Source: a virus. From it: DNA of 26,806 bases. Within the stretch, counting starts at the first letter, position 1. The number at the start of each line of letters is the position of its first letter. The DNA lies in IMG/VR virus record IMGVR_UViG_3300037400_003307, positions 1-26,806 of that record. One strand, 5' to 3'. Positions 1 through 26,806 of this stretch are shown here, piece after piece. The notes under the pieces are model-generated. The model worked only from the letters and a program-made list of their open reading frames with translations. It made no database searches and was not told where the DNA came from. The position numbers and the translations under genes were made by a program.

Positions 1-127
1 TGATTTTGATACTGGTTTCATTGTAATCATAATTAAAGACCTCCTGACTCCTTATAAATAAGCTTCTAGTCAAGAGGTCTTTAACCTCAATAAAGTATTG
101 AAAATCCTAGTTGGTGGAGCGTACGAG
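1..127. repeat. Terminal direct repeat; identical to 26680-26806 (circular-assembly overlap). Also contains the integrase start codon region (nt 1-30 are the reverse complement of ATGATTACAATGAAACCAGTATCAAAATCA)
   Basis: Base-by-base comparison by eye: 1-127 (tgattttgatactgg...ggagcgtacgag) equals 26680-26806, an offset of 26,679. Confidence 0.9.
35..82 (-). promoter_or_regulatory. Imperfect 15-bp inverted repeat (hairpin) between the tRNA-like segment and the int start. Its 3' arm on the minus-strand RNA carries the int Shine-Dalgarno. It may also terminate or insulate tRNA read-through after integration
   Basis: AAAGACCTCcTGACT (35-49), 18 nt, AGTCAaGAGGTCTTT (68-82); 14 of 15 positions complementary. 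On the minus strand the hairpin ends ...AGTCAGGAGGTCTTTAATTATG (int ATG). The same element recurs at 26714-26761. Confidence 0.5.
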
Positions 128-180
128 GCTCGAACTCGTGACCTCCTGACTGCCAGTCAGACTACCACTAAATTGAGCTC
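112..180 (-). other. tRNA-Ala(GGC)-like 3' segment (degenerate pseudo-tRNA); putative attP core
   Basis: The reverse complement reads GGAGCTCAATTTAGTGGTAG-TCTGA CTGGCAG TCAGG AGGTC ACGAG TTCGAGC CTCGT ACGCTCC A CCA. The anticodon arm (loop CTGGCAG, anticodon GGC), the 5-nt variable loop, the T arm (TTCGAGC loop), the 3' acceptor strand with U70, discriminator A and CCA are all canonical. The D-stem 3' strand is missing and only 5 of 7 acceptor pairs form, so it is not a functional tRNA. This is typical of a phage attP that rebuilds the 3' half of a host tRNA. Confidence 0.55.
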
Positions 181-325: not shown

Positions 326-1366
326 TTATCCATTATTTTGTATTAAAGTATTAAGTTGCTTTTTAATGTAATCTATATCTTGTTTTATCTTTTCTTGGTC
401 CGTCATATAAGTTTTAGTAAAATCTAATCTCATATTTGATATCTCAATTACAGATTCCTCTGGTTGTTTTGGATATCTAGTTATCTTAACAACTCTTTGT
501 TTCTGTTTAATCCTCTTGAGCTTATCAACCAAGAAAATAGTATCGCCTAAATTAACTTCATCTCCAATAGAAGAAAGCTTTAGCTTATAACTGCATTTAG
601 GCTGTGAAAGTTCTTCAAGATATAATTCAGCAGCCTTCTTTAAATCTTCAGCATACTCATACTTTTCATCGACCCATACCTTTTCGATGTATTTGTTTGT
701 GTATGTATTGTTAGTAAGATATTTCTTTCCTCCATTAACTGAAGATATATTAAGTCCGTCTTTTCCATAAGGATAGAGGACAGTGCAATACTCATATGAA
801 GATGATTGTTTGGATAATTGTTGAAGCTTTAATTCATTTGAATAATAAGTTCCTATTTGTTTACCCATTCTACCTTGATCGTAAATAATCACCTTCTTAT
901 TTTTTGTATCAAACCAAAACTCTTGATTGTTATCTGCGGCAATGGTCTTGATCATCTCAAAGCCTGACTTATTAGCTTCTTGATATGTGATCATTGTCCT
1001 ATTTTCACTCTGATAATCAATAGACCAATCTGGAGCTTGGCTAATACAGTATTCATATCCTTGCTGTAGGTTTAGCCTATACAAGTCAAATACTTCAAAA
1101 TTGATTCCAGCCAATTCTTCATAATTAGCAATGCAGAATACTTTAAAGAAAGAGTTATCATTCATAATTACTTCTTTAATTATATAACTGTAGTCTGCGG
1201 TCTCGAGGTAGTTTTCCTCTACTAAATTGGCTAAATTTATGTCATTAACTGGGGCATAAAACTCTAGGTTTCTTGTCCCTGTGGCTAATTGTTCAATAGT
1301 ATGAATATCTTGGCAGGAATCTAAAAGCATTAAAAAACGCTTATTAGTATCATATATTTTGAACAT
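326..1366 (-). CDS. Tail-tip protein, Tal-like (phage minor structural protein / prophage-tail N-terminal region only; no C-terminal lysin or fibre extension)
   Basis: The N-terminus MFKIYDTNKRFLMLLDSCQDIHTIEQLATGTRNLEFYAPVNDINLANLVEENYLETADYSYIIKEV follows the pattern of Gram-positive siphovirus Tal N-termini. It is the last gene of the tail module and its ATG overlaps the upstream stop (TAATG). Confidence 0.6.
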   Translation of the reverse strand: MFKIYDTNKRFLMLLDSCQDIHTIEQLATGTRNLEFYAPVNDINLANLVEENYLETADYSYIIKEVIMNDNSFFKVFCIANYEELAGINFEVFDLYRLNLQQGYEYCISQAPDWSIDYQSENRTMITYQEANKSGFEMIKTIAADNNQEFWFDTKNKKVIIYDQGRMGKQIGTYYSNELKLQQLSKQSSSYEYCTVLYPYGKDGLNISSVNGGKKYLTNNTYTNKYIEKVWVDEKYEYAEDLKKAAELYLEELSQPKCSYKLKLSSIGDEVNLGDTIFLVDKLKRIKQKQRVVKITRYPKQPEESVIEISNMRLDFTKTYMTDQEKIKQDIDYIKKQLNTLIQNNG

Positions 1367-1716
1367 TAGATATACCTCGCATTGTATTCAATTGAAATAT
1401 TAGCCAATGATCCACTAGGGATTGTAATTTCATTTACTCCTGGCTGTAACTTTGGGAATTCCCATCCATTATAATGACTAAAATAATCTTGGTCATTGAG
1501 AAGGACTTGTCTGTTCTCTCCATCAATGACCAAGACATCATTAGCATGAACCCCACTTACCTCTATAGGTTCATCACTCAATCCAGTAATAGAAAGAGTG
1601 ATGAAATCTACTTGAGGAATTATAGTTACTAGGCAAGGAGCTGGAGCAGTTCCATTATTTGTAATAGTGAAACTGCTACCATTATTATCGAATTCAATTG
1701 GATAATAATTCTCCAT
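1366..1716 (-). CDS. Distal tail protein (Dit) C-terminal domain encoded as a stand-alone 116-aa protein
   Basis: FTITNNGTAPAPCLVTII...DVLVIDGENRQVLLN...WEFPKLQPGVNEITI...ISIEYNARYI matches the characteristic C-terminal half of Sipho_tail/Dit proteins (N.G.a.P.i.i ... d.l.iD.e...v..n ... fp.L.pG.N.i ... ry). It has its own strong RBS (GGGAGG, 5 nt before the ATG), 11 nt after the giant ORF stop. Confidence 0.65.
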   Translation of the reverse strand: MENYYPIEFDNNGSSFTITNNGTAPAPCLVTIIPQVDFITLSITGLSDEPIEVSGVHANDVLVIDGENRQVLLNDQDYFSHYNGWEFPKLQPGVNEITIPSGSLANISIEYNARYI

Positions 1717-1727
1717 ATTTGCCTCCC

Positions 1728-4700
1728 TTATTCAACTATTGATAAGTTATTAGCTGTTTTCTTAAGCCAACCTATACCAGTATAAATCCAATCATGATCT
1801 GCATACATTACTGAAATAGCTGTAATTCTATCTCCATAATGATATTGATCAATCAAGTAATTATTATCCTCTATTGGATACTGGTAATAATTTGTATTAA
1901 CTGCTACAACATAATTAGTTCCATCTTCAACGGTTCTCTTATGTGTATTAGAATATGGAATCCAACCTTCACCAGTAAAGTATGCGGCAGGAGTTCCATC
2001 ATTAGTATAAGAAGCTGTGCAATAAGAAGTTAATACCATTGGATCTGTGCCATAATCAATTTCACTACCAACATTTTGGAAATATGGATCTTTTTCGCAA
2101 CGAATTATTTGTCCATTAATGGATCTGATACCAATAGTTTGCTTTTCAAATGTATAACTTATACTTTCTACTGCATATCCAGAAGTAATAATAGTAGCAT
2201 TATTTTCTGGAAGCCATTGATCTCCTGTATATAACCAACTACCTGATACTAAATTACTTTGCGGATCAGCATATCTTAAAACAGGAATTATTGTATTTTG
2301 ACGAATAGTTCTTACTCTATCTGCATAAGTATCTGGCCAATTATAAGTTTGAGTATCTGTAGAAATTTTATAAATTGAATTTATAGTTTCATACTCAAAT
2401 TCTTTATTGGCAAAATAATTGTATGCATTATTTTCATTAATTTCTTGGTTTCTCAAGAAAATTAAATCTTTACCATCTCTAGTTGGTTGAAGAGTTCCAG
2501 AATAAGAACTACTTGGTTTAATAGCTCCATCTGTTAATCTATAACTTCTAGCAAAATCTCCAGTTAATAAATCAAATAATCCATTATCTGGCATTCTTTC
2601 CTCTTGACCATTCCAATTGTATCTCACTCCTTTTGGAACTGGAACCCAATAGTGAATCATCATAAAGTTTTCATAAGCTATATTGTCATAAATAATACCT
2701 GATAAGTGTTGATAATCATCAGAACCTCCAATAACACTATTGGAGTATGGGTCTGCGGTCATTAGATATCTATCCGCACTACCTCTACCTAATGCATATC
2801 CTTTTAAGTTAGTATTATCATACATACGTAACCAATCTGAATCATACATAGATTGAGCTTGATCTTTTAATAAATAATATCTAGGTTCTTTATTAAGATA
2901 TTCATTTCCAATTCCAAGAACTAAAGTAGGACTTGATCTAAAGTTAGAAAATGTGTAGAAATAACTATCTCCAACTTCTGGATTATCTAATAAAGTTTGA
3001 ATATTACCACCTCTAGTATCCCAAGTTTTAATATAAGGCGGTATATAACCAGTAACATGTGTATTAGCAGCTTCATTATAAAGATCAGTTAACCAGTAGA
3101 AACTACCATTCCAAGATTTACTATAATAATATGAATCTTCAGAAGTGTCTAAAGTATCACTTGTTTTAACAAATGCTTTAGTAATTTCTCCTGAAGTATA
3201 AATATCGTAAATTGGATGTTCTGTATATTCTCCTGGTTCAAAATAATTATATGTTCCTGCCATATTAATACTTATTCCACGATTCTTAATATAATGAGTT
3301 TCATTACTACCTCCAGTATAATGAATAGTGTAATAAGTGCCTAAATAATTAGGCTGATTCCATAGCTTATAAGTATTAGGATCAAATGGTGGATATACAA
3401 CATATTGTGTTCCACATCTGACTAATTCATTAAAAGTAAATTTAATATTATCTTTATTCCAAGGTCTTGGATTCCAAAGATAAACACCATCGCCAAAGCC
3501 TAAAGGTTTATATAAATTTTTATCAAATCCAAAATAATCCCATGTTAAAGTTAATTCAGTATCTCTATAAAGAGTTGGTTCAATATCAACTGTAATAGTT
3601 CCACCATACTCTGAAATCAATTCATAATAAGCAGTATCTAAAGCTCTAACATAACCTACAATTGTAGTATCATTACAGTCTTGAACTGGATAAAATTGTT
3701 GCGTCATTTCTCCAGTAATACGTAAAACAGTTTTACCATCGCAATCATAATTAGTAACTGATTGTGAAGAATCATCTGGTTCAGAATAAATAACTAAATA
3801 ATGAGGATCAACTGTCTTACGAGTTTTTAAATATCCATAGTCAATTTGTTCTTCCTGTTGCCAAGAAGTTTCTATGAATTTATCCCAATCTGGGTTCCAA
3901 TCTGATATTGAACAAGTAAATGCGGCAGTGCCTAAAAGATTTACTGGAATAGTTTGATACTGATAATATTTGCAAGTATAACTATAAATTGTTTCAGGAT
4001 ATACAAACTCAATTTCATGTAAATCTGAAAGATTCGCATAAGATAAAGTAAGTTCTGGAACTGAAGCTTGATTATGGAATCTCAATTTATACTGCTGTGG
4101 ATATATTCCAACAGAAGATAAGGTAGGGTCTGAAAAATCAACTTCATCTAAATGAATTACATCAATTCCTAATCCATTATAAAGTTTACCTGCTTGATTA
4201 AATGAAATATCTTCATTCTTAATCCAACTATCTTGTGCTGGACAATAACACCATAACCTATCTATAGTCATTTTAGTTATTGTAATTTCAGAACCAAAAG
4301 GAATAGTAGCTGTTTCTTGATCAGCTACATCATAATCTGGATTCTGACCTGGACCAGTAACAGGATCAGTTTGGTTTAATAAAATCCATCCTGCTTGGTA
4401 TTCATCAAGTCTACCCCATCCATTCCTTTCTTCAGTAATAGTGTAATTATCATTTTCAATAATCATTGCTAAAGTTGGGAACTTGCGGGCTGGGCCTCTG
4501 TGGATACCAGCAAACTTATTTCTAACATACACTTGATAAGGAATGAAGTAGTCATAATCTTCATCCTCATATAAGGCTGTATGATAGTGGTTGTAATATT
4601 TAATAGCTCCATTTGGATTTAATACAACCGCATCTAAATCACAATCTAAATAGTTAGGACTATCTTCATTGACTGTAATTAAAGTATCATCATAAGCTCC

Positions 4701-7700
4701 TTGTCTATAATATTCTACATATAATAAATTTGGAGCTTCTTGTTTAGTTAATTTATCATATACAACAATTGGTGATGGAGCATCAATGAATGCTTCTATA
4801 TCATCATTTTCAATTATTGATTCATCAAATACTAATCTTCCATGAGCAAAGTCTTCATCATAGAATAAGTCAACGTCTATACCAAGATCATCTAAAGAAG
4901 TAGCATTTTGAATATCTTCTAATGAATAGAATATATCTCTAGAACCCACTCTTACATTATCTTTGTAATAAACAACTGTCTTTGTGAAGTTTCTTAACTT
5001 ATAATAAATATTCATTGCTCCCATCTCGTAGATGTTTGCAAGTGTCATATTTTGGAAGCTTAAATCAGTATCTAAATCTAATAATCCATCTAAATGGAAA
5101 TCATCAGGTTTATAATCATTAAATTGAAGAATATCTTCAATCTCTTCATTTGATTCATTATACCAAGTAGGAACATTTACAAATTGATTTGTAATAAATG
5201 AGTTATCATAATCATAATAGTTAGCTACTGTTTTACCATAGATAGTTGGATCTGGAATACAATTAAGCGGTAATACTTCATTTGCCTCAATATTTTGCAC
5301 TACATGAACTGCAGAAGTTTGAGGACCTAAATAACTATCATATGTATAACTTCCACCTTTATTACTATTTCCAAAGAATATTTCAGTAACTAAATCAAAT
5401 AATCCATTAGCTGGCATTACATAATCATAAATTTGATCTCCTTCAGCTACTGGAATAAGATTTCTTACCAATCTATCTTGATCATAAATCTTAATACCCC
5501 AAATTGCACAACCTGTCATTTGCGGGAAAGCTGGAGCTTGGAAACTAGCATAAAGAATATTTCTAGTTTGAGATTTTGTTTCAAAGATTGGTTGACCACT
5601 TCCATCTGTTCCTGTCATTACTAGAGAAGTAGTAGTTACAGATGTTGAAAAATCGTGATCATATGGATTTCCTAATGCATGACTAGAAAGATTCATACTA
5701 CCAGAAACACCAAGATAAGGCATTACCGTTGGATTAAACGGCATGATATTTACATTACCTGTATCAGGATTTGTAGTTTGGAATAATGATAATGTTCCTT
5801 TTGGCTGACAAATATTTTCAAATAATGGATTATCTTCTGATTCATCAAAATTATATACAGTAGGAGTATTGCTATCTCCATCTCTCCACTCTGAACCATA
5901 ACTATTATAAGCGTCAAGAATCATTGTATATGGATTACCACAAGCAGTTCTTTGTCTAGTTGTTCCACCAGTGGCTCTATTTATACACCAGTTAGGAATA
6001 TGATCACATTCTGGAAGATTCTTTAATATTTGAGATTCTACATCGGTTACATAATATGAATTAATATTTTCTTCATCCGTTCTAGTAAATCCATAATTAC
6101 TATAAGCTTTAATAACATTATAGTTATCATCATAATCACTATATTTACCTTTTCTATAAACGGCTTGAATACCTGTAAATCTTAATTTTGGCTGTCCAGA
6201 AATTACTGTAGCAGCATCTCCTGCTCTATAATAAGCTTGTCCATCAATTGTTTGTGGGCCAGCAGCTGTATATACATAACCACCAGCTTCTGGAACTCTA
6301 CATCTAAATGCAAAACATCCAGAAGAAGAAGGACTTATAGCAGATCCTCTAGGAGTTCCATTTGCAGAAGCAGAAATACTAATTCCACCCCTATCTCCTT
6401 CTTCAGTTCCTAAATAAGCTTCACCTAAAGCTCCATAGTAACCGAAGAAATAAGTATAAGCAAAATCTTGATACATATATTGTGCTGTATTAGTTCCAAT
6501 ACCCCAAGGTCTTGCATAACCTTTTAACTCAACTCTTAATCTGCTTATATCTTTTGGTTTGTATCCTAAATCAATATAAGGAATTTTTCCTCCATAAAAA
6601 CGATCGCTTCCATGAATATCATTAAAGTAATCTTCATCATTAACTTCACCCCAATAAAGAACCTTTTGTTCATATGATAAAGATTCTGGATCATGAGGTT
6701 GAGTCATTTCTTCATAAACTATTGCTACTTCTTCAATTGCGGCCAAGTCAGCAAATGTAGAATATGATGTAGAACTATTTTGAATCTGTCCACCATTACA
6801 ATTTGCAGGTTTATATTTATTAACATATCCATTAGGAATAGTATCAAGAATATAAATTGCAACTCCTGGTTCAAAGTCATCTATATTAATTCCCCAAGTG
6901 GTAGAAGCAATAAGATTTTCAGTATTGACAGAGTTTTTATAATAATTTACATCTAAATAAACCGTATCTACTAGATATACAATGGTATACATTTCTTTAA
7001 GTTTACTTGGATTATCAATCCTTTCATCCATCTCATACCACTGATATGGTTCACCATCTTTATAATAATTAGCTGGTTTATGAAGATTTTTATTTATATA
7101 AAAATCAATATATTCGCCATCTCTAAATTGAGTTTCATCGAATGTTAAAACTTCAGAAGCTATAGTTTCATAAGTTCTAATTCCATAAACTTTTTTAATA
7201 TAGCGAATAATTGTTGTATATGTTTCAAGCTCTCTGTCTGCTGCTTTATAAACAATCTCATATGGAGAATGATCAACAACTCTAGTAAGAGAAACTTTTG
7301 TGCCAGGATATTCGAAATCTGTCTCGAACCCCTCTGGCTTATATTTATTAATACGAACTATATCTCCAAAAGTAGGAGCTTGATAGAAATCTCTTTCGGA
7401 GATTCCAATAGTTTCTTCTTCGATAAGTGTTCTAACACCAACATTATTTTCAGTGTAATATTTAACAGTAATTGTATTAGCTTGTTCTGGATAAACAACT
7501 GTATAAACGGCATTGTTCATATTGTCGAAATCCCAAACTAAAGTAGAAGCATCTACAATTTCACCAGGTTTATAGTATGATGGTTGATATAAATCAATTT
7601 GGAACTTTTCATAAGGATCAAATATTTGATCAACAAAGTCACTTGCTCTAAAATAATAAGCAACACTTTGCATGAAAGTTTCACCCTTATAATAATTTAC

Positions 7701-10589
7701 ATAGCAATGACCGATCTTATGATCTAAATTAGTATCAGTATATCTTTCATCATCTCTAATATTAAAACTGTTTTGTCCAGTAGCATCCTCAAAGAAAGTG
7801 CCTGTAATTTTATCATATAAGCAATTTGAAGGAGCAACTTGATCACCAATCTTATCATAGAACTGAACTGGAATATAATCTCTAATTAAAGTTCCATTAT
7901 AATAGATACGACAACTATAAATACCAATACCAGCTAAACCATCTTCATATGTTCCACCATTATTATTAGCAAACAAATATAATGGATAAGGCATCTGTGC
8001 GGCCTCGCTTGCCATTGTGTTACTATAAGTGAAGACCGCAGTAGAATAACCAGGTCTTTCAATAGCATAAATACCAGAATTTGCTGAAAAACCAATTGCA
8101 GCATCTTCAGTTTGAACCAAAGTGTCAGAATAAAGTCCTGCTTTTGCTTCATATGTATTCACACCTGTAAGATTCTCACCATATTGTGTCTGGTTGTTAA
8201 ATCTCATAAAATATGATCCTAATATTGAACTAGAACCAAATAAATAACCATAACCTGCATTTACATTGTGTAAAGGAGCATCCTCATCTACTCTTTCGCA
8301 CTCCATTACTACAGTTAATTTGCTCATATCTTCAACTGAAACACCAGTATTAATATAAGCATGATTCATTGTCCAATTAGGATGCAAAGATTCATAATCA
8401 CCTAAATCATTATGTTCAAGGAAAAGGAATCTATGTGGATAATCTAAATCTCCACCTGGTTCCATAACAGTTTCATAAACTACATTTAAACTTGTTAAAT
8501 TTCTTAATGATTCAAAATTAACAGGTCCATGATACTGAAGTTCGCCATCATCACAATAACTAGGTTTATATGCATTTATATTAAATCCTAAATCATATAA
8601 AGTTGTATCAACCGTAAAATCAATAACCTTATATGATATTGAACTACTTCCAATCCAATTTAAATCATCTACATCATCTGTATAATATCTAACTGGAGTG
8701 ATAAAAGTAGAAGCCATATAAACTACTGTATAATTTGATTCAATTTCATCAAATGTGAGAAGGGCAGTTGAACTATAACCATCTAAAATACCATTCTCAT
8801 AGTAATCTGGCTTATAAAGATTCATATTAAATACATCTTTAAGTCTAATACCATTTATAGTATCAGCTTCATTAATAGTAATGATTGATGTATTAATTGT
8901 TGCAAAAGTAGAAGATAACTCTTGCTTATATTTTAAAATAATATTTTTTGTGCGGGCAGCTACTATTTCCTCAAAATAAATGAGAATAGGAGAAGCTTGA
9001 GTCAAACCCGCTAGTGTTACAGGGCCATCATATGAAAGAAGAGCGTCAAATTGAAAACCTTCTGGTCTATAACTAGAAATTGGAATAATATCACTTAATA
9101 CTGGATCTCCAATAAAATCTAACGCATTAATAGTAAGTTCTGTTACTACAGGTTCTTCATCTGGCACATGGTATTGAACCTGAATAGTATAATCAATTGG
9201 TTCATAATAAACCTGTAATACTCCACTAGAAATAACAGCATCATAACTATCATAAATACTGCTATTATACAAAACTCCATTCTGATACTCTGAAGTATGA
9301 TATTTATTTAAATCTAAATTAATATCAGAAAGATCAAAACTTTCTTCGTATGATTCTTTATAAACAGTTGAAAGTGTAGTTGTAGATAATCTATACCAGC
9401 CTGGATAAACTCCAATATAATATTCTACAAAAACAATATTCGTAGATTTAGCATATTTAATTTCATAACTAGATTCTACGCCGTCATAATCAACCAATTC
9501 TGTAGCACTGTGATCTTCAATATAACCTTCATTGTAGTATGTTGCTGTTGGTCTATAAGCATTTACATTAAGAATTTCTCCAAGAGTCATTCCATCTGTA
9601 AAATCACTTTGTTTAAATACTTTTGTAGTAGCTCCAACAGTGGAGAAAGAACCATTATCGTCTTCTTTTTTATAAGTTACGGTTACATTTTTAGTTAAAT
9701 CGTTTTCCAATCTATCATAAAAAACATAAATTGGACTTACAGCTAATAAGTTTTCTACAGTTAAAGCTCCTGTAAAAGCTATTCTGCCAAGATAACCTTC
9801 TGGCTTATAACTTTTAATATCAACTAATTGTCCAATAGACTGAATGTTCTGTAACTGCGGATAAGTAAACTGAATATTGTTAGTAAACATATCCTGATAA
9901 ACACCAGTGCCGTTATCCATGTAATAATTAATAGTTAAGTTATAAGCTATAGGAGCATAATTAATAATAAGAGTTCCTAATGACTGTAAGTTTTCATAAG
10001 TAATTTCTCTGCCGCCAAGATTTGTAGCAATACCTTCTTGATAATAATTAGGTCTATACTTATTTGTTTCAATACCTATAGAAGCTAATGTATTATTAGT
10101 ATCCTCAAACATTGCTGCTCGAATAGTAACACTATCAGTTGATAATAAAGTTGTTGAGTTCTGATAATATAAAAGAGTTAGTTTAAAACTGCTTGTATAA
10201 TTTGCATCAGTTGTGTAAACCTCTCTTTCACCTTTTGCATAATCAGAAGTAAAACTATAATCAACTATAAAATTACCATTCTTTAATCTTCTTGGACTAG
10301 CAGAACCAATCATACTAACATCAAAATAATAATCTAGATCATCAAACTTTAATGTAGCTTTCTTAAGCATATTAGTAAGTTTGCTAATTCTTAAGAAAGC
10401 ATCATCTTCGTCTTGAGCAAGCACTAAAAAAGACAGTTTAATGTTTTTAAAACTGTCTTGCTGTCTTATATAAGTTGGTTGAATATCTCCATCTAACCAA
10501 GCTTCTTTTGTGCTTACTTGATTACTTGAAATGACTCTATCATATAATTTAATGCCGAGACTGCTTAATTCAATATTATTAATTAACAT
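1728..10589 (-). CDS. Giant (2,953 aa) modular tail-tip adhesin: Dit N-terminal ring domain fused to ~14 beta-rich ~83-aa repeats, three lectin/jelly-roll-like modules and ~6 SH3b-like modules
   Basis: Uninterrupted 8,862-nt ORF. The ATG is preceded by GAGGAGG and overlaps the upstream stop (TAATG). aa 1-125 resemble the Dit N-domain (LSSLGIKL..., DDLDYYFDV..., GNFIVDYSFTSDYAKG). The recurring [NS]xY[KR]P..[YF] motif and the SH3b-like GW...GW(I/L) motifs are detailed in the findings. Confidence 0.85.
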   Translation of the reverse strand: MLINNIELSSLGIKLYDRVISSNQVSTKEAWLDGDIQPTYIRQQDSFKNIKLSFLVLAQDEDDAFLRISKLTNMLKKATLKFDDLDYYFDVSMIGSASPRRLKNGNFIVDYSFTSDYAKGEREVYTTDANYTSSFKLTLLYYQNSTTLLSTDSVTIRAAMFEDTNNTLASIGIETNKYRPNYYQEGIATNLGGREITYENLQSLGTLIINYAPIAYNLTINYYMDNGTGVYQDMFTNNIQFTYPQLQNIQSIGQLVDIKSYKPEGYLGRIAFTGALTVENLLAVSPIYVFYDRLENDLTKNVTVTYKKEDDNGSFSTVGATTKVFKQSDFTDGMTLGEILNVNAYRPTATYYNEGYIEDHSATELVDYDGVESSYEIKYAKSTNIVFVEYYIGVYPGWYRLSTTTLSTVYKESYEESFDLSDINLDLNKYHTSEYQNGVLYNSSIYDSYDAVISSGVLQVYYEPIDYTIQVQYHVPDEEPVVTELTINALDFIGDPVLSDIIPISSYRPEGFQFDALLSYDGPVTLAGLTQASPILIYFEEIVAARTKNIILKYKQELSSTFATINTSIITINEADTINGIRLKDVFNMNLYKPDYYENGILDGYSSTALLTFDEIESNYTVVYMASTFITPVRYYTDDVDDLNWIGSSSISYKVIDFTVDTTLYDLGFNINAYKPSYCDDGELQYHGPVNFESLRNLTSLNVVYETVMEPGGDLDYPHRFLFLEHNDLGDYESLHPNWTMNHAYINTGVSVEDMSKLTVVMECERVDEDAPLHNVNAGYGYLFGSSSILGSYFMRFNNQTQYGENLTGVNTYEAKAGLYSDTLVQTEDAAIGFSANSGIYAIERPGYSTAVFTYSNTMASEAAQMPYPLYLFANNNGGTYEDGLAGIGIYSCRIYYNGTLIRDYIPVQFYDKIGDQVAPSNCLYDKITGTFFEDATGQNSFNIRDDERYTDTNLDHKIGHCYVNYYKGETFMQSVAYYFRASDFVDQIFDPYEKFQIDLYQPSYYKPGEIVDASTLVWDFDNMNNAVYTVVYPEQANTITVKYYTENNVGVRTLIEEETIGISERDFYQAPTFGDIVRINKYKPEGFETDFEYPGTKVSLTRVVDHSPYEIVYKAADRELETYTTIIRYIKKVYGIRTYETIASEVLTFDETQFRDGEYIDFYINKNLHKPANYYKDGEPYQWYEMDERIDNPSKLKEMYTIVYLVDTVYLDVNYYKNSVNTENLIASTTWGINIDDFEPGVAIYILDTIPNGYVNKYKPANCNGGQIQNSSTSYSTFADLAAIEEVAIVYEEMTQPHDPESLSYEQKVLYWGEVNDEDYFNDIHGSDRFYGGKIPYIDLGYKPKDISRLRVELKGYARPWGIGTNTAQYMYQDFAYTYFFGYYGALGEAYLGTEEGDRGGISISASANGTPRGSAISPSSSGCFAFRCRVPEAGGYVYTAAGPQTIDGQAYYRAGDAATVISGQPKLRFTGIQAVYRKGKYSDYDDNYNVIKAYSNYGFTRTDEENINSYYVTDVESQILKNLPECDHIPNWCINRATGGTTRQRTACGNPYTMILDAYNSYGSEWRDGDSNTPTVYNFDESEDNPLFENICQPKGTLSLFQTTNPDTGNVNIMPFNPTVMPYLGVSGSMNLSSHALGNPYDHDFSTSVTTTSLVMTGTDGSGQPIFETKSQTRNILYASFQAPAFPQMTGCAIWGIKIYDQDRLVRNLIPVAEGDQIYDYVMPANGLFDLVTEIFFGNSNKGGSYTYDSYLGPQTSAVHVVQNIEANEVLPLNCIPDPTIYGKTVANYYDYDNSFITNQFVNVPTWYNESNEEIEDILQFNDYKPDDFHLDGLLDLDTDLSFQNMTLANIYEMGAMNIYYKLRNFTKTVVYYKDNVRVGSRDIFYSLEDIQNATSLDDLGIDVDLFYDEDFAHGRLVFDESIIENDDIEAFIDAPSPIVVYDKLTKQEAPNLLYVEYYRQGAYDDTLITVNEDSPNYLDCDLDAVVLNPNGAIKYYNHYHTALYEDEDYDYFIPYQVYVRNKFAGIHRGPARKFPTLAMIIENDNYTITEERNGWGRLDEYQAGWILLNQTDPVTGPGQNPDYDVADQETATIPFGSEITITKMTIDRLWCYCPAQDSWIKNEDISFNQAGKLYNGLGIDVIHLDEVDFSDPTLSSVGIYPQQYKLRFHNQASVPELTLSYANLSDLHEIEFVYPETIYSYTCKYYQYQTIPVNLLGTAAFTCSISDWNPDWDKFIETSWQQEEQIDYGYLKTRKTVDPHYLVIYSEPDDSSQSVTNYDCDGKTVLRITGEMTQQFYPVQDCNDTTIVGYVRALDTAYYELISEYGGTITVDIEPTLYRDTELTLTWDYFGFDKNLYKPLGFGDGVYLWNPRPWNKDNIKFTFNELVRCGTQYVVYPPFDPNTYKLWNQPNYLGTYYTIHYTGGSNETHYIKNRGISINMAGTYNYFEPGEYTEHPIYDIYTSGEITKAFVKTSDTLDTSEDSYYYSKSWNGSFYWLTDLYNEAANTHVTGYIPPYIKTWDTRGGNIQTLLDNPEVGDSYFYTFSNFRSSPTLVLGIGNEYLNKEPRYYLLKDQAQSMYDSDWLRMYDNTNLKGYALGRGSADRYLMTADPYSNSVIGGSDDYQHLSGIIYDNIAYENFMMIHYWVPVPKGVRYNWNGQEERMPDNGLFDLLTGDFARSYRLTDGAIKPSSSYSGTLQPTRDGKDLIFLRNQEINENNAYNYFANKEFEYETINSIYKISTDTQTYNWPDTYADRVRTIRQNTIIPVLRYADPQSNLVSGSWLYTGDQWLPENNATIITSGYAVESISYTFEKQTIGIRSINGQIIRCEKDPYFQNVGSEIDYGTDPMVLTSYCTASYTNDGTPAAYFTGEGWIPYSNTHKRTVEDGTNYVVAVNTNYYQYPIEDNNYLIDQYHYGDRITAISVMYADHDWIYTGIGWLKKTANNLSIVE

Positions 10590-10831
10590 TAATAGCCTCC
10601 TCTTTGGTTTTTTAAAGCTAATTCATTTGATATACCTTCAATTGACATTCCTTCAGTTGATGAATCATTAATATAAGCTTGATTTGCAATATAAGCATTC
10701 ATTTGATTTTCATTAAACCCCATATTATTAGATAATTCATGAACAGAATTTAATAAATCTGTTCCTGCGGATAAATTTTCAGAAGGATATAAACTTTTTC
10801 TTTCAAGTTCTTGACTTATATTTTCTTCCAC
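10589..10831 (-). CDS. Hypothetical 80-aa protein in the position normally held by the tape measure gene (GTG start)
   Basis: GTG start at 10831, 9 nt after AAGGAGG. Its stop overlaps the giant ORF's ATG (TAATG). No recognisable motif. Confidence 0.5.
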   Translation of the reverse strand: MEENISQELERKSLYPSENLSAGTDLLNSVHELSNNMGFNENQMNAYIANQAYINDSSTEGMSIEGISNELALKNQRGGY

Positions 10832-10835
10832 AATA

Positions 10836-11348
10836 TTAATCCTCCTTAATATTTAAAGATTGAAAAGTTAATTTTCTTTCTTCACTACTTCCAATTTGAT
10901 ACCCTTTATCTTCAATTAGCCTAATATCAGCTTTTAAATTATTTCTTTGCTTTAAAGCAATTAAAAAAAGATTTGCATCAATTTCTTTTCTTCGTTTAAA
11001 ACCTTCATATGCCATATTTATATCTTGAAGTGTCATTTGATAAAAATCACAAGGAGCTATACCCATTTCTCCAACGATTCTGGTGTATAGCTCCTCGATT
11101 TCTATAGGAGTTTTTGAAAGAAAATTATGATTTATATAATTATCAAGCAAATTTATTTCAGATTCAGAACACTTATTAAGAAGTGCTTTTACATCTTGAA
11201 ATGTCATATTTGGTTGATCTGTAATGAAACCAGAAAAATAAATTAATAATTTTTCATCTTCATCTAAATATAACAAATCATTAAACATTATTAGCCCTTT
11301 AAGCCCAAAACGGAAACTATATATAGCACCGTCTTTGCTTAAAATCAT
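10836..11348 (-). CDS. Tail assembly chaperone (gpG-like), putative
   Basis: Lies immediately downstream of the major tail protein with an ATGA overlap. Size, acidic character and the motif ...GIAPCDFYQMTLQDINMAYEGFKRRKE... are typical of Gram-positive siphovirus chaperones. Confidence 0.5.
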   Translation of the reverse strand: MILSKDGAIYSFRFGLKGLIMFNDLLYLDEDEKLLIYFSGFITDQPNMTFQDVKALLNKCSESEINLLDNYINHNFLSKTPIEIEELYTRIVGEMGIAPCDFYQMTLQDINMAYEGFKRRKEIDANLFLIALKQRNNLKADIRLIEDKGYQIGSSEERKLTFQSLNIKED

Positions 11349-12337: not shown

Positions 12338-13000
12338 TTATGTAATTATAACGTTTGGCGTATATACAAAACCACCGCCACCACCAGATCCAGCTTTTTC
12401 AATTCTATCGACTCTTTCAGAAAAACTTTGACCTACCATAACTTGAACTGTTGTAGTAATAAATGCAGTTATAAAAGAGGCTACTATAGCTCCTGCCATA
12501 GCTGCTAATGAACCACCTATGCCCATAGCGCCAGGTAATCCTTGAGCATTTAATCCTGCTTGAGCATTTCCATATTTATCTGCTTGTTGAGCGGCTAAAG
12601 CTTGAGCTTGTTGTTCCATAGCCTCTTCTTCTGCCAATATTTGTTCTTCTAATTGAGCGTCTTCTTCAGCTTGACTCCATAAAGGTTCTGCTGCGGCCAA
12701 AGCTTCTTCTAATGCTGGAGTAAAATAAGGTTGTGCAGCTTGACACCAAGTCCCATATTCTGGATACTGCGCATATTCACAATCAGTTTCCACCTCACAA
12801 AATGAATTGCCATCAGTATCTGCGCTCAATGTTGATTGTAAATATCCAGTATCTACTGGAACAAGATCATCTGCTACAGATAAAAAAGTATCTACAAATA
12901 CATCACAACCTGGACCATAATCTGGACGCACATTATATGTTTCAGTAGCTTCAATATAACCAAAGTCACTTATTACATCAAAACTTGCGTATAAACCCAT
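12338..13000 (-). CDS. HK97 gp10-like head-tail joining protein with an unusual C-terminal acidic coiled-coil plus Gly-rich hydrophobic extension
   Basis: LVPVDTGYLQSTL is the hallmark gp10-family motif (PVDTG.L..S). aa ~100-145 are an E/A/Q-rich helix. aa ~150-190 (GAMGIGGSLAAMAGAIVASFITAFITTTVQVMVG) are hydrophobic and Gly-rich, followed by GSGGGGG. Confidence 0.6.
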   Translation of the reverse strand: MGLYASFDVISDFGYIEATETYNVRPDYGPGCDVFVDTFLSVADDLVPVDTGYLQSTLSADTDGNSFCEVETDCEYAQYPEYGTWCQAAQPYFTPALEEALAAAEPLWSQAEEDAQLEEQILAEEEAMEQQAQALAAQQADKYGNAQAGLNAQGLPGAMGIGGSLAAMAGAIVASFITAFITTTVQVMVGQSFSERVDRIEKAGSGGGGGFVYTPNVIIT

Positions 13001-13680
13001 TATATCTTTTCCTTATATATACAAAACAAATACGTCTGTTCAGAAGCACCATATAACCCATACCAAGAAGATGCATTTGCTGGTTTTAAAGTTATTGTTG
13101 TTGATGATCCTCCAACACTAACTGTCATATTTATATTTGATCCACCTTTAACTTTAGTAACAGTTCCATTATCATATTTATATATGGCCAATGGAGACGC
13201 TGGAGTTCCACTAGGATAAGTTGCAGAACCACTACTTCCTAATGAAACTGGAGTGCATACTAAATAAAAATAATATGAAGCTTTAGGCAATGTAAAAGTC
13301 ATAGAAGCTGAAGTGCTTTTTGATGTAAATGTTCTATAATAAAAACTTCCTTTTCTTACTGCACCGTCTTTCCATGAATAAATATCCATTGCTGGACCTT
13401 CATAAGTTCCTTTTACCCCCAAAATATTAACATTCTTTTTTATTTTAGATTCAACGATATCTGAATCAGATACTTTAGCTGTAGCATAATTTGTAACATC
13501 TATTGTATCCATGCTTGTAATATATTTCATTCCACTTGGAGTAATACCACCACCTGTTGTAATTCCATTTACTGCAGTAGCCATTTCAGCCACCGTCATA
13601 GTGTCACTATCTCCAGTTTTAGCTCTTATAGCATCACCAAGAGCAGTTAAGTCACTAGTATTTTCTAAACTATATGCCAT
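13000..13680 (-). CDS. Hypothetical structural (fibre-associated) protein
   Basis: N-terminal LTALGDAIRAKTGDSDTMTVAEMATAV is a motif I associate with phage fibre or receptor-binding accessory proteins. TAATG coupling on both sides. Confidence 0.4.
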   Translation of the reverse strand: MAYSLENTSDLTALGDAIRAKTGDSDTMTVAEMATAVNGITTGGGITPSGMKYITSMDTIDVTNYATAKVSDSDIVESKIKKNVNILGVKGTYEGPAMDIYSWKDGAVRKGSFYYRTFTSKSTSASMTFTLPKASYYFYLVCTPVSLGSSGSATYPSGTPASPLAIYKYDNGTVTKVKGGSNINMTVSVGGSSTTITLKPANASSWYGLYGASEQTYLFCIYKEKI

Positions 13681-14081
13681 TAATAACTACCTCCTACTGT
13701 TACAGATTCCCAACTATAAATTGGGGTTAAATTAACTCCAGAAAGAGTGCATTTTAAAAAATATGTTCCAGCATTAGATGGAGCAGAAGGAAGACCAGTT
13801 ACTGTCGATCTAATTTCATTATTAGCATCTATACTAATACCAGTTCCAGCACTATATGTTGTATCAGTATCAGTAGCTGAAATAACGCCATTGCTAATGG
13901 TTATAGAAGAACCATCAACTTTAACTCCTCCAAGAGTAGAAGTAGAAGCGGTAGGCAGACTATATTGAGAAGGCATATTTGTATTAATATACTGCTTAAT
14001 TAACCGAGCAAATCTTTCAAGCCCTCTTCCATCAATATAAATGTTGTCATATTGACTTCCTATACCTTGTTCTCCTGCCAT
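13680..14081 (-). CDS. Fibre-like protein (133 aa)
   Basis: STLGGVKVDGSSITISNGVISA and YSAGTGISID motifs are typical of phage fibre shafts. The second motif recurs in the 537-aa fibre. Confidence 0.5.
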   Translation of the reverse strand: MAGEQGIGSQYDNIYIDGRGLERFARLIKQYINTNMPSQYSLPTASTSTLGGVKVDGSSITISNGVISATDTDTTYSAGTGISIDANNEIRSTVTGLPSAPSNAGTYFLKCTLSGVNLTPIYSWESVTVGGSY

Positions 14082-14100
14082 AATAATCCTCCTTCCTCAA

Positions 14101-14637
14101 TTAAGAAGCTGATGCAGCACTCCAAATTGAATCAATTTCAGAATTAGTAAGGGTGTCAATAGACATAGAAGTATCTCCAATAATCTCCCAAGCATTATTA
14201 ACATAAGCATATTCTGTATATACTTGATTAGTTCCAGAAGTAGATTTAGGAACTAAATAGATTTTTGAAGTTGAAATATTACTTGAAGGTAATGTTTGAA
14301 CTATTTCAAAACTAAAGGTTCCAATACCACTAATTGCAGATGTAATATCTGACATTGTAGCAACCTTATTTGAAGATGCATTATAAGCTGTATTAAATAC
14401 CAAAGTGTCTTGCTTTCCACTTACGTCTGGAATATCGCTCATTGTAGCTACTTTATTAGTAGATGAATCATAAGCTGTATTAAAAACAAGAGCATCTTGC
14501 TTACTAGCTAAAGCACTAGCATCAGCCTTACTGGCTAAATCACTTGTGCTTGCCTTACCAGCTAAAGCAGTTTTAATCAAACTACTAAAATAAACTAATT
14601 TATCACCAGTTAAAACTTTATTATCATATGTTGCCAT
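14101..14637 (-). CDS. Fibre-like protein with a 29-aa tandem repeat
   Basis: KQDALVFNTAYDSSTNKVATMSDIPDVSG / KQDTLVFNTAYNASSNKVATMSDITSAISG (nt ~14329-14502). It shares the IVQ.LP...IY.V...Y.EY.Y.N.AWE.IG module and the C-terminal LTNS(D/E)I..IW motif with the 537-aa ORF. Confidence 0.55.
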   Translation of the reverse strand: MATYDNKVLTGDKLVYFSSLIKTALAGKASTSDLASKADASALASKQDALVFNTAYDSSTNKVATMSDIPDVSGKQDTLVFNTAYNASSNKVATMSDITSAISGIGTFSFEIVQTLPSSNISTSKIYLVPKSTSGTNQVYTEYAYVNNAWEIIGDTSMSIDTLTNSEIDSIWSAASAS

Positions 14638-14649
14638 AATAAAATCTCC

Positions 14650-16263
14650 TTATTCGTTTTCCCAAATAGCAAGAATATCACTATTTGTTAAATATTCGAT
14701 ATCACTATTAATAGTGTCATTTGTAATTGAAATACCTGTTCCTGCAGAAAGAGTTGGAGGAAGTTGTCCCATTGTAGCTGCATCCATAGCATTTTCTCCA
14801 ACAGCACCTAAAGTAAGCTTTCCAGCTAACCATTCATTACCAGACCAGTCTAATGTGCGGGCATTAGATCTATTATTATCAGAATCTCCATTACCTACTA
14901 CTTCAATATGAGGTCCTCTCGCACTTAAATGAGATGAAGAATATGTAGTTCCATTATCTTCTGCGATATTATACTCACCAAAAACATGTTGAGATCTAAC
15001 ATATGTTACTGTTCCTTGTCCTTCTGTGTGCGAATAATACCCTCCAGATAGTGTCTCGCATCCTTCAGCATGTGAATAATTTCCATTTGCATAGCTTCTA
15101 GAACCTTCTGCATGAGCTCCTATTGCTTGAGCTCTAGTCGCATGTCCTTCAGAATGTGCATAGGCACTAGTAGCCGCTGTTCCATTTCCTTCAGCATGAG
15201 AAGAAATTCCAGAAGCATTAGAACCATCTCCTTGAGCAAAAGCTTTTTGACCTGTAGCTGTAGTATTATAGCCAATTGCCATAGAATTTTTACCCAATTT
15301 ATCAACAGCTCTGTGTTCATCATTGGCGCCAATACTTCTCAAACTACCTTCAGCTGAACCATTAACTAAATTAGTAGCAGTAGAATAACCACTCAAATCA
15401 ATAGCAGTGCTTCCAATAGTCTCCCAAGCTCCATTAATATACATATATTCATCATATATGTTGCTTGAAAGACCAGTGCCAGCTACAAAATAAATTGTAT
15501 TTGAATCTCCAGTAGTAGGAAGTTCTTGAACAATTTCAGTGTTAAAAGAAGTAATATTTCCAACAGCAGCTGCAATTAAAGAATTAACTTCTGTAGTTGT
15601 AGTTGCTCCCACTTCTTGAGCAGTATATGTTGGCTTTTCTGCGGCCTTGGCCCAACTAGGAACAGTGGGATCAGTCTCTGTGAAAGAATCTAATTTAGCA
15701 TTCCAATTACTAATATCTTGTTGTGTAATACCTGCTGCAGGTGCTGTGCTTGCAATTGCACCTACTTCAGAAGCCGTATATTCTGGTTTAGCAGGCTGTT
15801 TCGCCCAATTAGGCACTGTAGGATCTGTTTCAGTAAAAGAAGTCAAATAACCAGCATCATTATTAAATGCACTTACATCAGTAGGCACTGTAGGAATAGT
15901 TGGTTTATCTGAAAGATCAGTATAACTTCCACTTGTAGCCACAGTTGCTAGACTACTAGAGTCAGCCTTGGCCGCAATCACTTCACTTACAGCTCTATTG
16001 TCTTGTTCAGACATAGTTATAGTAGAAGCGTATATATCTACAGCAATGCCTGGATCTCCTTTTGGTCCTTGTGGTCCTCTTGGGCCTTGAGGTCCTCGTT
16101 CTCCTTGATCGCCCTTATCTCCCTTATCACCTTTTGGACCTCTTATAGGATCGGATAAAGTAGCTTCAATCGTAGGAGGAGGTGTAAGAGATGCTTCTAA
16201 TTCAGGGCCATCAAAATCAAGAACAGGATTTTGAAAATCAAGTTCATAAATTTCATTAGCCAT
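14650..16263 (-). CDS. Collagen-like fibre protein with YadA-head-like (SHAEG) repeats
   Basis: Ten G-X-Y triplets, GPKGDKGDKGDQGERGPQGPRGPQGPKGDPG (nt 16048-16140). VSAFNNDAGYLT motif. A 28-aa repeat SFTETDPTVP(N/S)WAK..(A/E)KP.YTA.EVGA occurs twice (15757-15840 and 15604-15687). Serial S.A.G / SHAEG / SHSEG / AHAEG / SHTEG repeats at nt ~15004-15291. Confidence 0.75.
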   Translation of the reverse strand: MANEIYELDFQNPVLDFDGPELEASLTPPPTIEATLSDPIRGPKGDKGDKGDQGERGPQGPRGPQGPKGDPGIAVDIYASTITMSEQDNRAVSEVIAAKADSSSLATVATSGSYTDLSDKPTIPTVPTDVSAFNNDAGYLTSFTETDPTVPNWAKQPAKPEYTASEVGAIASTAPAAGITQQDISNWNAKLDSFTETDPTVPSWAKAAEKPTYTAQEVGATTTTEVNSLIAAAVGNITSFNTEIVQELPTTGDSNTIYFVAGTGLSSNIYDEYMYINGAWETIGSTAIDLSGYSTATNLVNGSAEGSLRSIGANDEHRAVDKLGKNSMAIGYNTTATGQKAFAQGDGSNASGISSHAEGNGTAATSAYAHSEGHATRAQAIGAHAEGSRSYANGNYSHAEGCETLSGGYYSHTEGQGTVTYVRSQHVFGEYNIAEDNGTTYSSSHLSARGPHIEVVGNGDSDNNRSNARTLDWSGNEWLAGKLTLGAVGENAMDAATMGQLPPTLSAGTGISITNDTINSDIEYLTNSDILAIWENE

Positions 16264-25812: not shown

Positions 25813-26709
25813 CTATATTAAGTTTTGTAATGGAGATAAAGAGTCATAATTCTTCATCAATTCAGTATCGTAAATGCGGCAATAGTGTTTTGTCATATCA
25901 AGAGTCGAATGGCCCAAGATTCTTTGTAGATCAAATGCGTTTCCACCTGCCCGCAAATACCTTTCAGCAAATGAATGCCTAAACAAATGAATTGAAGTCT
26001 TTTCAACACCTCTTTTTCTGTTGTATCTTCGAATGGCTTCAGACAAACCATTCTCTGTCATTTGTTCTTCATTCTCTTTTGGAAAGAGAAAATCAGTTTG
26101 AGAGCCTCCTCTTACCTTTAAATAATCCTTCAATATTTTCTTCATCTCCTGGCACAAAGGCACAATTTGAGAAGAACCATTCTTTGTATGTCTATAACTT
26201 ATTATCCCTTCATCCAGATTGATATCTTGAACTCTTATATTGCGGATAGTAGCAGCTCTGCAACCAGAGTTAAGCAATAGATTAATGATGACCCAATTCC
26301 TATATTCACAGAAAGTGCAAGTTTTCCGATCGGGTCTCTTTAAAAGCTTAACAAGTTCTTCATCAGTGTAAGTTGTTTTGATTGACTCCTGGCCTTTATA
26401 TTTCTTGATTTTAAGATCGGTTAATCCTTCATCATTACACCAAGAAAGAAAAGATTGGAGTGTTGCTGTGTAGCTTCTAATTGAATTAGGAGACAAACCC
26501 CTATTTCTCAAAGTAAGAACAATATTTTCTAAATCTCTTTTGGAAAGCTCTTCAATTTGCTTTTCCACAGCTAATTCCTTGCTAATTGTATGGAACTGCT
26601 GTGAATATGTCTGAAGAGTTTTATTCCTTATTCCATTTGCTCTTTTAGAGTTAATAAAATCTTCAAAAGTTTCCTCGACTGATTTTGATACTGGTTTCAT
26701 TGTAATCAT
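25813..26709 (-). CDS. int: Tyrosine site-specific integrase (XerC/D-like phage integrase family)
   Basis: SAM-like N-domain (TFEDFINSKRANGIRNKTLQTYSQQF). Catalytic signature SGCRAATIRN (Arg), HLFRHSFAERY (H-x-x-R), LGHSTLDMTKHY (His/Tyr). It sits next to the tRNA-like attP. GGAGG RBS. Confidence 0.9.
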   Translation of the reverse strand: MITMKPVSKSVEETFEDFINSKRANGIRNKTLQTYSQQFHTISKELAVEKQIEELSKRDLENIVLTLRNRGLSPNSIRSYTATLQSFLSWCNDEGLTDLKIKKYKGQESIKTTYTDEELVKLLKRPDRKTCTFCEYRNWVIINLLLNSGCRAATIRNIRVQDINLDEGIISYRHTKNGSSQIVPLCQEMKKILKDYLKVRGGSQTDFLFPKENEEQMTENGLSEAIRRYNRKRGVEKTSIHLFRHSFAERYLRAGGNAFDLQRILGHSTLDMTKHYCRIYDTELMKNYDSLSPLQNLI

Positions 26710-26806
26710 AATTAAAGACCTCCTGACTCCTTATAAATAAGCTTCTAGTCAAGAGGTCTTTAACCTCAATAAAGTATTGAAAATCCTAGTTGGTGGAGCG
26801 TACGAG
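26680..26806. repeat. Second copy of the 127-nt terminal overlap (equals nt 1-127)
   Basis: Identical by eye to nt 1-127. Confidence 0.9.

Follow-up and report, generated by a model that had tools for sequence, protein, structure and literature searches.

A distal tail protein divided between two genes, its ring domain extended by about 2,800 residues, in a family of small phages

Layout of the locus

The stretch analysed here, referred to as the window, is 26,806 nucleotides of viral DNA (IMG/VR record IMGVR_UViG_3300037400_003307, positions 1 to 26,806). All of its genes lie on the minus strand. The subject of this study is its distal tail protein (Dit), which is encoded by two adjacent genes: a giant gene whose 2,953-residue product begins with the Dit N-terminal ring domain (Dit-N), and, directly downstream, a gene for a 116-residue protein made up of the Dit C-terminal, galectin-type outer domain (Dit-C). 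The giant gene occupies 33% of the genome and ends in TAA (1728-1730). Directly downstream of the Dit-C gene, its start overlapping the stop of the latter, lies the gene of a minimal Tal, in which the PF06605 match covers residues 101-319. The order small open reading frame (ORF), Dit-N fusion, Dit-C and Tal parallels the canonical triad of tape measure protein (TMP), Dit and Tal. The coordinates of these and the neighbouring tail genes are given in Table 1.

The 3' end of the giant ORF reads TCA ATA GTT GAA TAA (S-I-V-E-stop), and is followed by the short spacer GGGAGGCAAAT. The ATG of the 116-residue ORF lies +14 nt from the T of the giant TAA, that is, in the -1 frame relative to the giant ORF, and its frame is closed by the TGA in GT[T GA]A, 15 nt upstream of the ATG. 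A model that had been given only the letters and a list of ORFs (the sequence-only reading) had described the junction in the same terms (TAA plus 11 nt, a ribosome-binding site (RBS) in the spacer, a -1 frame, a TGA 15 nt upstream), and each of these statements is correct on direct reading.

Table 1. Features of the tail-tip locus and adjacent tail genes in the window.
Feature	Position	Strand	Basis or remark
Tal-like tail tip protein, 346 aa, structural N-terminal part only	326..1366	minus	PF06605 Prophage_tail, E 9e-34; tail protein PHROGs
Stand-alone Dit C-terminal (galectin-type) protein, 116 aa	1366..1716	minus	PF22768, PHROG 33, canonical-Dit hidden Markov model (HMM)
Intergenic spacer, 11 nt	1717-1727	minus	Bears Shine-Dalgarno of the 116-aa gene; read directly
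Giant gene, 2,953 aa	1728..10589	minus	Dit N-terminal ring domain plus ~2,800-aa extension; ORF list, translation
Variable C-terminal ~550 aa, giant aa ~2400-2953, presumed receptor-contacting tip	1731..3392	minus	Column identity 15-30%, many indels
Most conserved extension module, giant aa ~709-950	7740..8465	minus	Conservation profile; all-beta model
Dit N-terminal (ring/belt) domain, giant aa 1-136	10182..10589	minus	Canonical-Dit HMM, BLASTP to L023 Dit, AlphaFold2 and Foldseek
80-aa ORF in tape-measure position	10589..10831	minus	Own AAGGAGG RBS, GTG start; TMP-like C-terminal motif
170-aa protein in tail-chaperone position	10836..11348	minus	No family match; homologues of 79-148 aa at the same position in relatives
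Tail tube protein, 129 aa	11345..11734	minus	PF06199, E 7e-21; PHROG 1407 major tail protein
Tail terminator, 139 aa	11703..12122	minus	PHROG 176, E 2.8e-7

The two halves of the Dit

The N-terminus of the giant protein has no match in the Pfam library and a weak one to PHROG 33 (positions 41-184, E 0.004). Its relationship to Dit is strong when an HMM built from 17 Dits of ~230 residues (232 positions; the canonical-Dit HMM) is used: residues 1-136 correspond to positions 1-136 of this HMM with an E-value of 1.8e-43. In BLASTP, residues 1-118 align with residues 1-117 of the Dit of L023 at 35% identity (E 2e-23). L023 is an IMG/VR relative in which an unsplit Dit of 230 residues is encoded right after a 727-residue TMP and before the gene in the Tal position. 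An AlphaFold2 model of residues 1-140 (mean predicted local distance difference test, pLDDT, 73.5) has as its four best Foldseek entries the monocin tip (9j1k_K), TP901-1 (4v96), SPP1 (2x8k) and 80alpha (6v8i), all solved Dits or tail-tip chains with query-normalised TM-scores of ~0.5-0.6, followed by Bxb1 and p2. Structure prediction had been proposed as a check on this piece, and the solved Dits among its nearest neighbours relate it to Dit. A PDB sequence search with the N-domain profile returned nothing, tblastn of the N-domain against GenBank phages gave no match, and a word-indexed search with the same domain recovered only contig-truncated fragments of the same family. The HMM, BLASTP and structural matches show that the first ~125-136 residues of the 2,953-residue protein are a Dit ring domain, as the sequence-only reading had proposed from its signature. 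The giant ORF ends in its TAA with no Dit C-domain in cis.

The missing half is encoded by the next gene. The 116-residue protein matches the Pfam family PF22768 (SPP1_Dit, the C-terminal domain of siphovirus-type tail components) over the entire profile (1-97 of 97; E 7.8e-12), with a score of 45.7 bits against a gathering cut-off of 25, and PHROG 33, 'distal tail protein Dit', over positions 174-278 (E 6e-21). Its residues 11-116 correspond to positions 128-232 of the canonical-Dit HMM (E 4e-31), and residues 14-116 are 40% identical to residues 130-230 of the L023 Dit (E 1e-22). In tblastn it matches the C-terminal ~100 residues of ordinary Dits of ~230 residues, e.g. that of Clostridium phage phiSM101, which comes after the tape measure of that phage. 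A PDB sequence search with the C-domain profile gave sub-threshold matches only, SPP1 gp19.1 among them at E 0.55. The galectin domain is uninterrupted, and is preceded by a linker-equivalent segment, YYPIEF, in which Y4, Y5, P6, I7, F9 and D10 are invariant or nearly so in the family. The 116-residue gene therefore encodes the whole Dit outer domain as a polypeptide of its own, with its own RBS; the suggestion that the C-domain signature makes up the entire ORF is borne out by the end-to-end profile match.

Because the N-piece covers HMM positions 1-136 and the C-piece positions 128-232, the two genes tile one canonical Dit, with the break at the inter-domain linker (canonical positions ~128-136). 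Both pieces align to the L023 Dit and to the canonical-Dit HMM on either side of the linker, in agreement with the earlier placement of the break at the inter-domain boundary.

Conservation of the split

A search with the 116-residue protein found 156 homologues at E <= 1e-3. The 120 that were listed are 114-122 residues long and 59-95% identical to it, carry PF22768, and typically lie on contigs of 24-29 kb. The Dit-N/Dit-C gene pair is present in all 20 related loci examined, far beyond chance, and the upstream giant gene, where complete, encodes 2,844-3,294 residues. A GGAGG-like motif stands just upstream of the downstream ATG in most relatives, in a spacer of 11-22 nt; the exceptions are L006, L007 and L014, which have GGGGG, and L011 and L016, which have no spacer. 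The split is kept down to ~50% identity. The C-piece is under purifying selection: the ratio of nonsynonymous to synonymous substitution rates (dN/dS) is 0.13 against L008 and 0.25 against L013, and the proportion of nonsynonymous differences (pN) is well below that of synonymous ones (pS) in all pairs. These data show that the split is real, heritable and conserved across a diverse clade of phages of ~20-27 kb. The family is widespread in ruminant-gut metagenomes.

Could frameshifting or stop readthrough nevertheless join the two genes during translation, so that the product is one 'evolved Dit' with a very large insertion and the split is only apparent? Their adjacency, 11 nt apart in the window, would suit such joining, and many relatives reassign TAG, so that unusual decoding does occur in the clade. 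The giant gene, however, stops with TAA in the window and in 19 of the 20 related loci and with TGA in the remaining one, never with TAG, the sole recoded codon. In six loci the two genes are in frame, but two consecutive stop triplets (TAA TAA or TAA TAG) intervene. Across the relatives the frame offset may be 0, 1 or 2 and the spacer 0-22 nt; in the window the downstream frame is closed by the upstream TGA and there is no slippery site. Most loci have the Shine-Dalgarno-like motif ahead of the downstream ATG, and in L059, a locus of the sister lineages described in the next section, a 59-residue gene and a hairpin lie between the two genes. Joining is therefore very improbable, and the variable offsets and spacers, together with the double stops of the in-frame relatives, uphold the earlier view of two separate polypeptides without a slippery site. 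A sequencing or assembly artefact might be suspected of the window, which is a single metagenome-type contig, as might a recent inactivating mutation in a decaying prophage. We give these next to no weight, since assemblies made independently from many samples show the split at 50-95% identity, selection on the C-piece is purifying, and the genome is a complete circle with its structural genes intact and tightly packed. Because the frame offset takes all three values among the relatives, programmed recoding and sequencing error are excluded as general explanations; so is pseudogenisation.

Sister lineages and history of the fusion

When 1.84 billion representative proteins were scanned in full with HMMER, the Dit-N profile matched 162 of them; the 150 listed were scored with the Dit-C profile. 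Among the matches listed, a C-domain is present in cis in 66 of the 68 proteins of 220-262 residues, in 2 of the 27 proteins of 451-1,100 residues and in none of the nine proteins longer than 1,100 residues. Distant homologues of 364-569 residues with the C-domain in cis are also present, and these may be ordinary evolved Dits.

Three sister loci have shorter fusions, of 679 (L059), 1,054 (L060) and 468 residues (L061), with extensions of ~350-930 residues beyond Dit-N and no C-domain in cis. In each, the fusion is followed by a protein of 214-222 residues that has an extra N-terminal domain and a Dit-C-like C-terminal half, and then by a Tal of ~340 residues. The sister lineages (L059, L060, L061; P0182-P0231) thus share with the window the order of tube, two small ORFs, Dit-N fusion, Dit-C protein and Tal, a small genome, an integrase (in L060), and the fusion junction itself, as their fusions align with the giant protein through residues 1-180, beyond the ring domain. 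They differ in the length of the extension, which carries recognisable Flg_new_2 (divergent InlB B-repeat) domains, and in the larger Dit-C protein. At 5320-5424 of L059, a terminator-like perfect hairpin (GGAACAGTTTCTG...CAGAAACTGTTCC) and the 59-residue gene separate the Dit-N fusion from the Dit-C-containing gene.

Since the sister lineages have the same junction and a separate C-domain with only short extensions, the split predates the growth of the extension to ~2,800 residues. The fusion junction and the separation of the C-domain are ancestral to a wider clade, and the ~2,800-residue body is a later expansion. A single split in the common ancestor of these phages would have been followed by growth of the arm from a few hundred to ~3,000 residues. 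The sequence-only reading had envisaged the reverse order, i.e. that about 2,800 residues were inserted and the gene was then fissioned; this order is not supported, the sister loci being already split with extensions of only ~350-930 residues. The original event could be either an insertion accompanied by a stop, or a replacement of the 3' half with a second copy of the C-domain kept. The variability of the C-terminus of the giant protein is more in keeping with a free distal tip than with an insert that leads back to the ring.

The body of the giant protein

Twelve full-length homologues of the giant protein are colinear, and colinear homologues in related loci have 2,844-3,294 residues. Over residues 1-2200 their alignment columns are mostly 40-70% identical, two short poorly conserved stretches aside, and the last ~550 residues, with 15-30% identity and many indels, are presumed to be the distal tip that binds the receptor. 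Conservation in the extension is highest in a module at residues ~709-950, which has motifs similar to ones that recur near residues 1694-1740 and 2632-2680. A self-BLAST of the giant protein for internal repeats found nothing at E <= 1e-3. The module is possibly a ConA-like lectin jelly-roll, judging by an all-beta AlphaFold2 model of residues 660-1000; no fold is claimed.

The adhesin role of the body is inferred from its position, architecture and variability. The arm is read as the adhesion device because no separate receptor-binding gene lies downstream of the short Tal. The sole other fibre-like candidate is a collagen-like protein of 537 residues (14650-16263) that has matches to tail-fibre families and whose gene lies upstream of those for the neck.

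Proposed tail-tip assembly

We regard as probable, as an explanation of the whole, a two-gene Dit with ring-borne adhesion arms and an outer domain joined in trans. Six copies of the N-domain would form the usual hexameric ring under the tail tube, and each copy would bear a ~2,800-residue arm projecting from the edge of the ring, at the usual site of the galectin domain. The arm would consist of bead-like beta modules (InlB B-repeat-like in the sister lineages) and lectin-like jelly-rolls, would end in a fast-evolving tip, and would serve as the host-adhesion device of the phage. With only 11 nt between the two genes, which are presumably transcribed together, the 116-residue domain would be made in step with the giant protein. 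It would then join the tip non-covalently, likeliest at the ring periphery via the conserved N-terminal YYPIEF segment. Reassembly of the C-domain in trans, which the sequence-only reading had considered necessary, is plausible. The outer domains of known Dits lie at the ring periphery and make no mutual contact (PMC7291167). Further, an HHpred-based reading makes lambda gpM a Dit with no domain besides the ring (PMC7291167), so the ring probably needs no outer domain. Accordingly, the lack of a C-domain in cis does not exclude a Dit function of the giant protein.

Several results weigh against this explanation. An hhalign comparison of the N-piece and C-piece profiles, which covered a duplicated linker or first strand and a docking element, gave no significant match, and the overlap of ~9 HMM positions (DANYTSSFK in the giant, NNGSSFTIT in the C-piece) hence stays a weak hint. 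If ring-only Dits exist, as the HHpred reading of gpM suggests, the C-piece may have another role. The whole giant protein has no match in Pfam, PHROG and PDB-sequence searches. The AlphaFold2 model of residues 660-1000 is of low confidence (pLDDT 60.7), and Foldseek with this model found nothing below E 0.04, with a loose, non-significant enrichment of lectins and jelly-rolls.

There are two alternatives to this explanation. The 116-residue protein may be an independent component (an adaptor between arm and Tal, a carbohydrate-binding decoration, or a non-virion assembly factor), with the ring working alone as in the HHpred reading of gpM (PMC7291167). This would agree with the lack of a docking signal in hhalign and with the sister lineages, in which Dit-C, as the C-terminal half of a 214-222-residue protein, evolves in its own right. 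We hold it to be unlikely, though it is the strongest of the competing accounts, since the relatives keep both the place of the gene between Dit-N and Tal and its tight coupling with the giant gene, and the near-invariance of the linker-equivalent segment (Y4, Y5, P6, I7, F9, D10) is expected if a contact with the ring persists. The other alternative concerns the arm, which might replace the missing tape-measure or tail-length function, or deliver an effector or enzyme, with Dit-N as a mere anchor. The giant gene does occupy the place of TMP plus Dit in a genome with no normal TMP, and its body has no annotated domains. TMPs are long, alpha-helical proteins, whereas the modelled module is all-beta and the sister extensions have bead-like adhesin repeats. 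Moreover, a protein that starts with the ring domain projects outward, whereas the place of a TMP is the lumen of the tube. The tip at the C-terminus is hypervariable, as in receptor-binding proteins, and a separate protein of 51-86 residues keeps the TMP C-terminal motif. A non-adhesin role is thus improbable, and clearly more so than an independent C-piece.

A putative vestigial tape measure

The separate small protein is encoded in the window by an 80-residue ORF, whose TAA overlaps the ATG of the giant gene; the small ORF in the same position in relatives encodes 51-86 residues. None of the ORFs of the 26.7-kb genome has a match to a TMP family. The C-terminus of the 80-residue protein, ..NELALKNQRGGY, fits the motif of the small-protein family, ..MNxIGLEVQRxGG, and so, in L062, does the C-terminal end of the bona fide TMP that is encoded upstream of the closest canonical Dit (..KDSMDYFMNKLALAVQRG). 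When a profile of the small proteins was compared with 480 six-frame ORFs, the best match was the C-terminus of the L062 TMP (E 3.9e-7); that of the L023 TMP came second and was not significant. With the same profile, a database search gave 226 proteins (E <= 10); those listed, 120 in number, have 28-81 residues and include no long TMP, so the link to the tape measure rests on the targeted 480-ORF search and the motif. With moderate confidence, the 80-residue ORF can be called a putative vestigial tape measure. A G/GT-type frameshift between the 170-residue and 80-residue ORFs was considered and is unlikely, as the 80-residue ORF has its own RBS and GTG start.

As a rule of thumb, a tape measure acts as a ruler of ~1.5 A per residue. 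A vestigial TMP of 80 residues would thus imply a very short tube, and one of ~50-85 residues would predict a tube only a few rings long. It is tempting, though doubtful at present, to view these viruses as siphovirus-derived phages in which the long tail was almost abolished: the TMP would have been cut to its last ~50-85 residues, six Dit-ring arms of ~3,000 residues would give reach, and the galectin domain would be re-attached in trans. If true, this would be a tail-tip architecture not described before, and a way in which stubby-tailed virions could evolve from long-tailed ones.

Genome, host and genetic code

Bases 1-127 of the window are identical to bases 26680-26806, a circular-assembly overlap, which gives a complete circular genome of 26,679 bp. 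It encodes an integrase, a repressor-like protein, HNH and other nucleases, TerS, TerL, portal, minor head protein, scaffold, capsid, connectors, a collagen-like fibre protein, neck, terminator and tube, and then the tail tip set. This small rumen phage is temperate. Although the host inferred for it is Gram-positive, its complete 26.7-kb genome has no recognisable gene for an endolysin, a holin or DNA replication; the phage could depend on its host or a helper for these functions, or the genes may be too divergent to detect.

At ~112-170 (minus strand), next to the integrase gene (25813-26709), lies a sequence, probably the attP core, that resembles the 3' part of tRNA-Ala(GGC). No tRNA was called in the window by ARAGORN or Rfam; the 3' tRNA-like part is visible by eye. 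A stretch of 38 nt within this fragment has an exact match in 35 ruminant-gut metagenome-assembled genomes (MAGs), mostly Mogibacterium, Anaerovoracaceae and 'uncultured Clostridiales', which suggests the host and the integration site. A wall-less (Mollicutes-type) host had been considered as a reason for the missing lysin and TMP, and was dropped in view of the Mogibacterium and Anaerovoracaceae matches. A search for prophages with Dit-C peptide patterns in GTDB species-representative genomes found none. In L026 (JAFWNE010000034.1, a Mogibacterium MAG) the tRNA-derived att-like sequence occurs twice on a single host contig, at 364-401 and 6018-6055, 5.6 kb apart; the pair may mark a small element that integrated at this site.

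In fourteen closely related loci (L003, L004, L006, L007, L011 and L014-L022) the giant gene contains 5-33 in-frame TAG codons, and TAGs occur in the Dit-C gene too. At the recoded TAG positions the non-recoded homologues have Gln in 24% of cases, against a background of 3.4%, so TAG is read as Gln (code 15). A suppressor tRNA was not found in 16 related loci. The genes of the window have no in-frame TAG; its 28 ORFs stop with TAA (21), TGA (5) or TAG (2), the last only in the integrase gene and a 63-residue repressor-like gene. For annotation, this means that TAG-recoded relatives fragment under the standard code (table 11).

Between the head-tail connector and the neck and tail genes (13000-16263) are fibre-like ORFs of 537, 178, 133 and 226 residues. 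The 537-residue protein has a collagen-like G-x-y stretch at residues ~40-75 and shares PHROG 24103 with the 178-residue protein. The cluster may encode head or neck fibres. The adjacent HK97 gp10-like neck protein of 220 residues (12338-13000) has a C-terminal extension with an acidic, Ala/Gln-rich, coiled-coil-like stretch (by eye) and a Gly/Ala-rich hydrophobic segment, which is unusual for this family.

Comparison with known systems

Dit is a conserved hub for the host-recognition devices of siphophages, and its known variation consists of loss or exchange of the outer domain or of small inserted modules. A conserved lineage with a split hub and a fibre on the ring half would be a new way to build an adhesion device. 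Our literature searches found no description of a split Dit or of a fusion of a Dit ring with a fibre, and no close relative was found among GenBank phages. In the databases searched, the giant ORFs and their 115-residue neighbours carry no functional name, and the giant has no Pfam or PHROG match. A split Dit would be a natural test of galectin-domain docking in trans and, with a vestigial tape measure, a tractable case for the co-evolution of tail length and tail-tip architecture.

Canonical Dits (SPP1 gp19.1, TP901-1 ORF46, p2 ORF15, 80alpha) have the same two domains in the same order upstream of Tal. Here, in contrast, the domains are on two polypeptides, the ring domain has a C-terminal extension of ~2,800 residues, and the TMP seems to have shrunk to ~80 residues. 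Evolved Dits carry one or more carbohydrate-binding modules in loops of the galectin domain, on a single chain (PMC7291167). Those of Lactobacillus phages J-1 and PL-1, of lactococcal 936 and P335 phages and of streptococcal phages likewise use Dit as a scaffold for peripheral host-binding modules (PMC7291167), but have one or two such modules on one chain that is typically ~400-700 residues long. The Dit of the window lacks their defining feature, modules in the galectin loops of a single chain: the addition follows canonical position ~136, ahead of the main part of the galectin domain, is 5-10 times larger, and the chain ends without a galectin domain.

Lambda gpM and T5 pb9 (OB-fold) are similar in that they indicate that a ring domain can work without a covalent galectin domain; they differ in having no separate galectin gene, no giant extension and full-length TMPs. 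The L-shaped fibres of T5 and the side tail fibres of lambda are, like the arms proposed here, long tail-tip appendages for first contact with the host, but they are separate proteins docked on collar or adaptor proteins and not covalent extensions of Dit.

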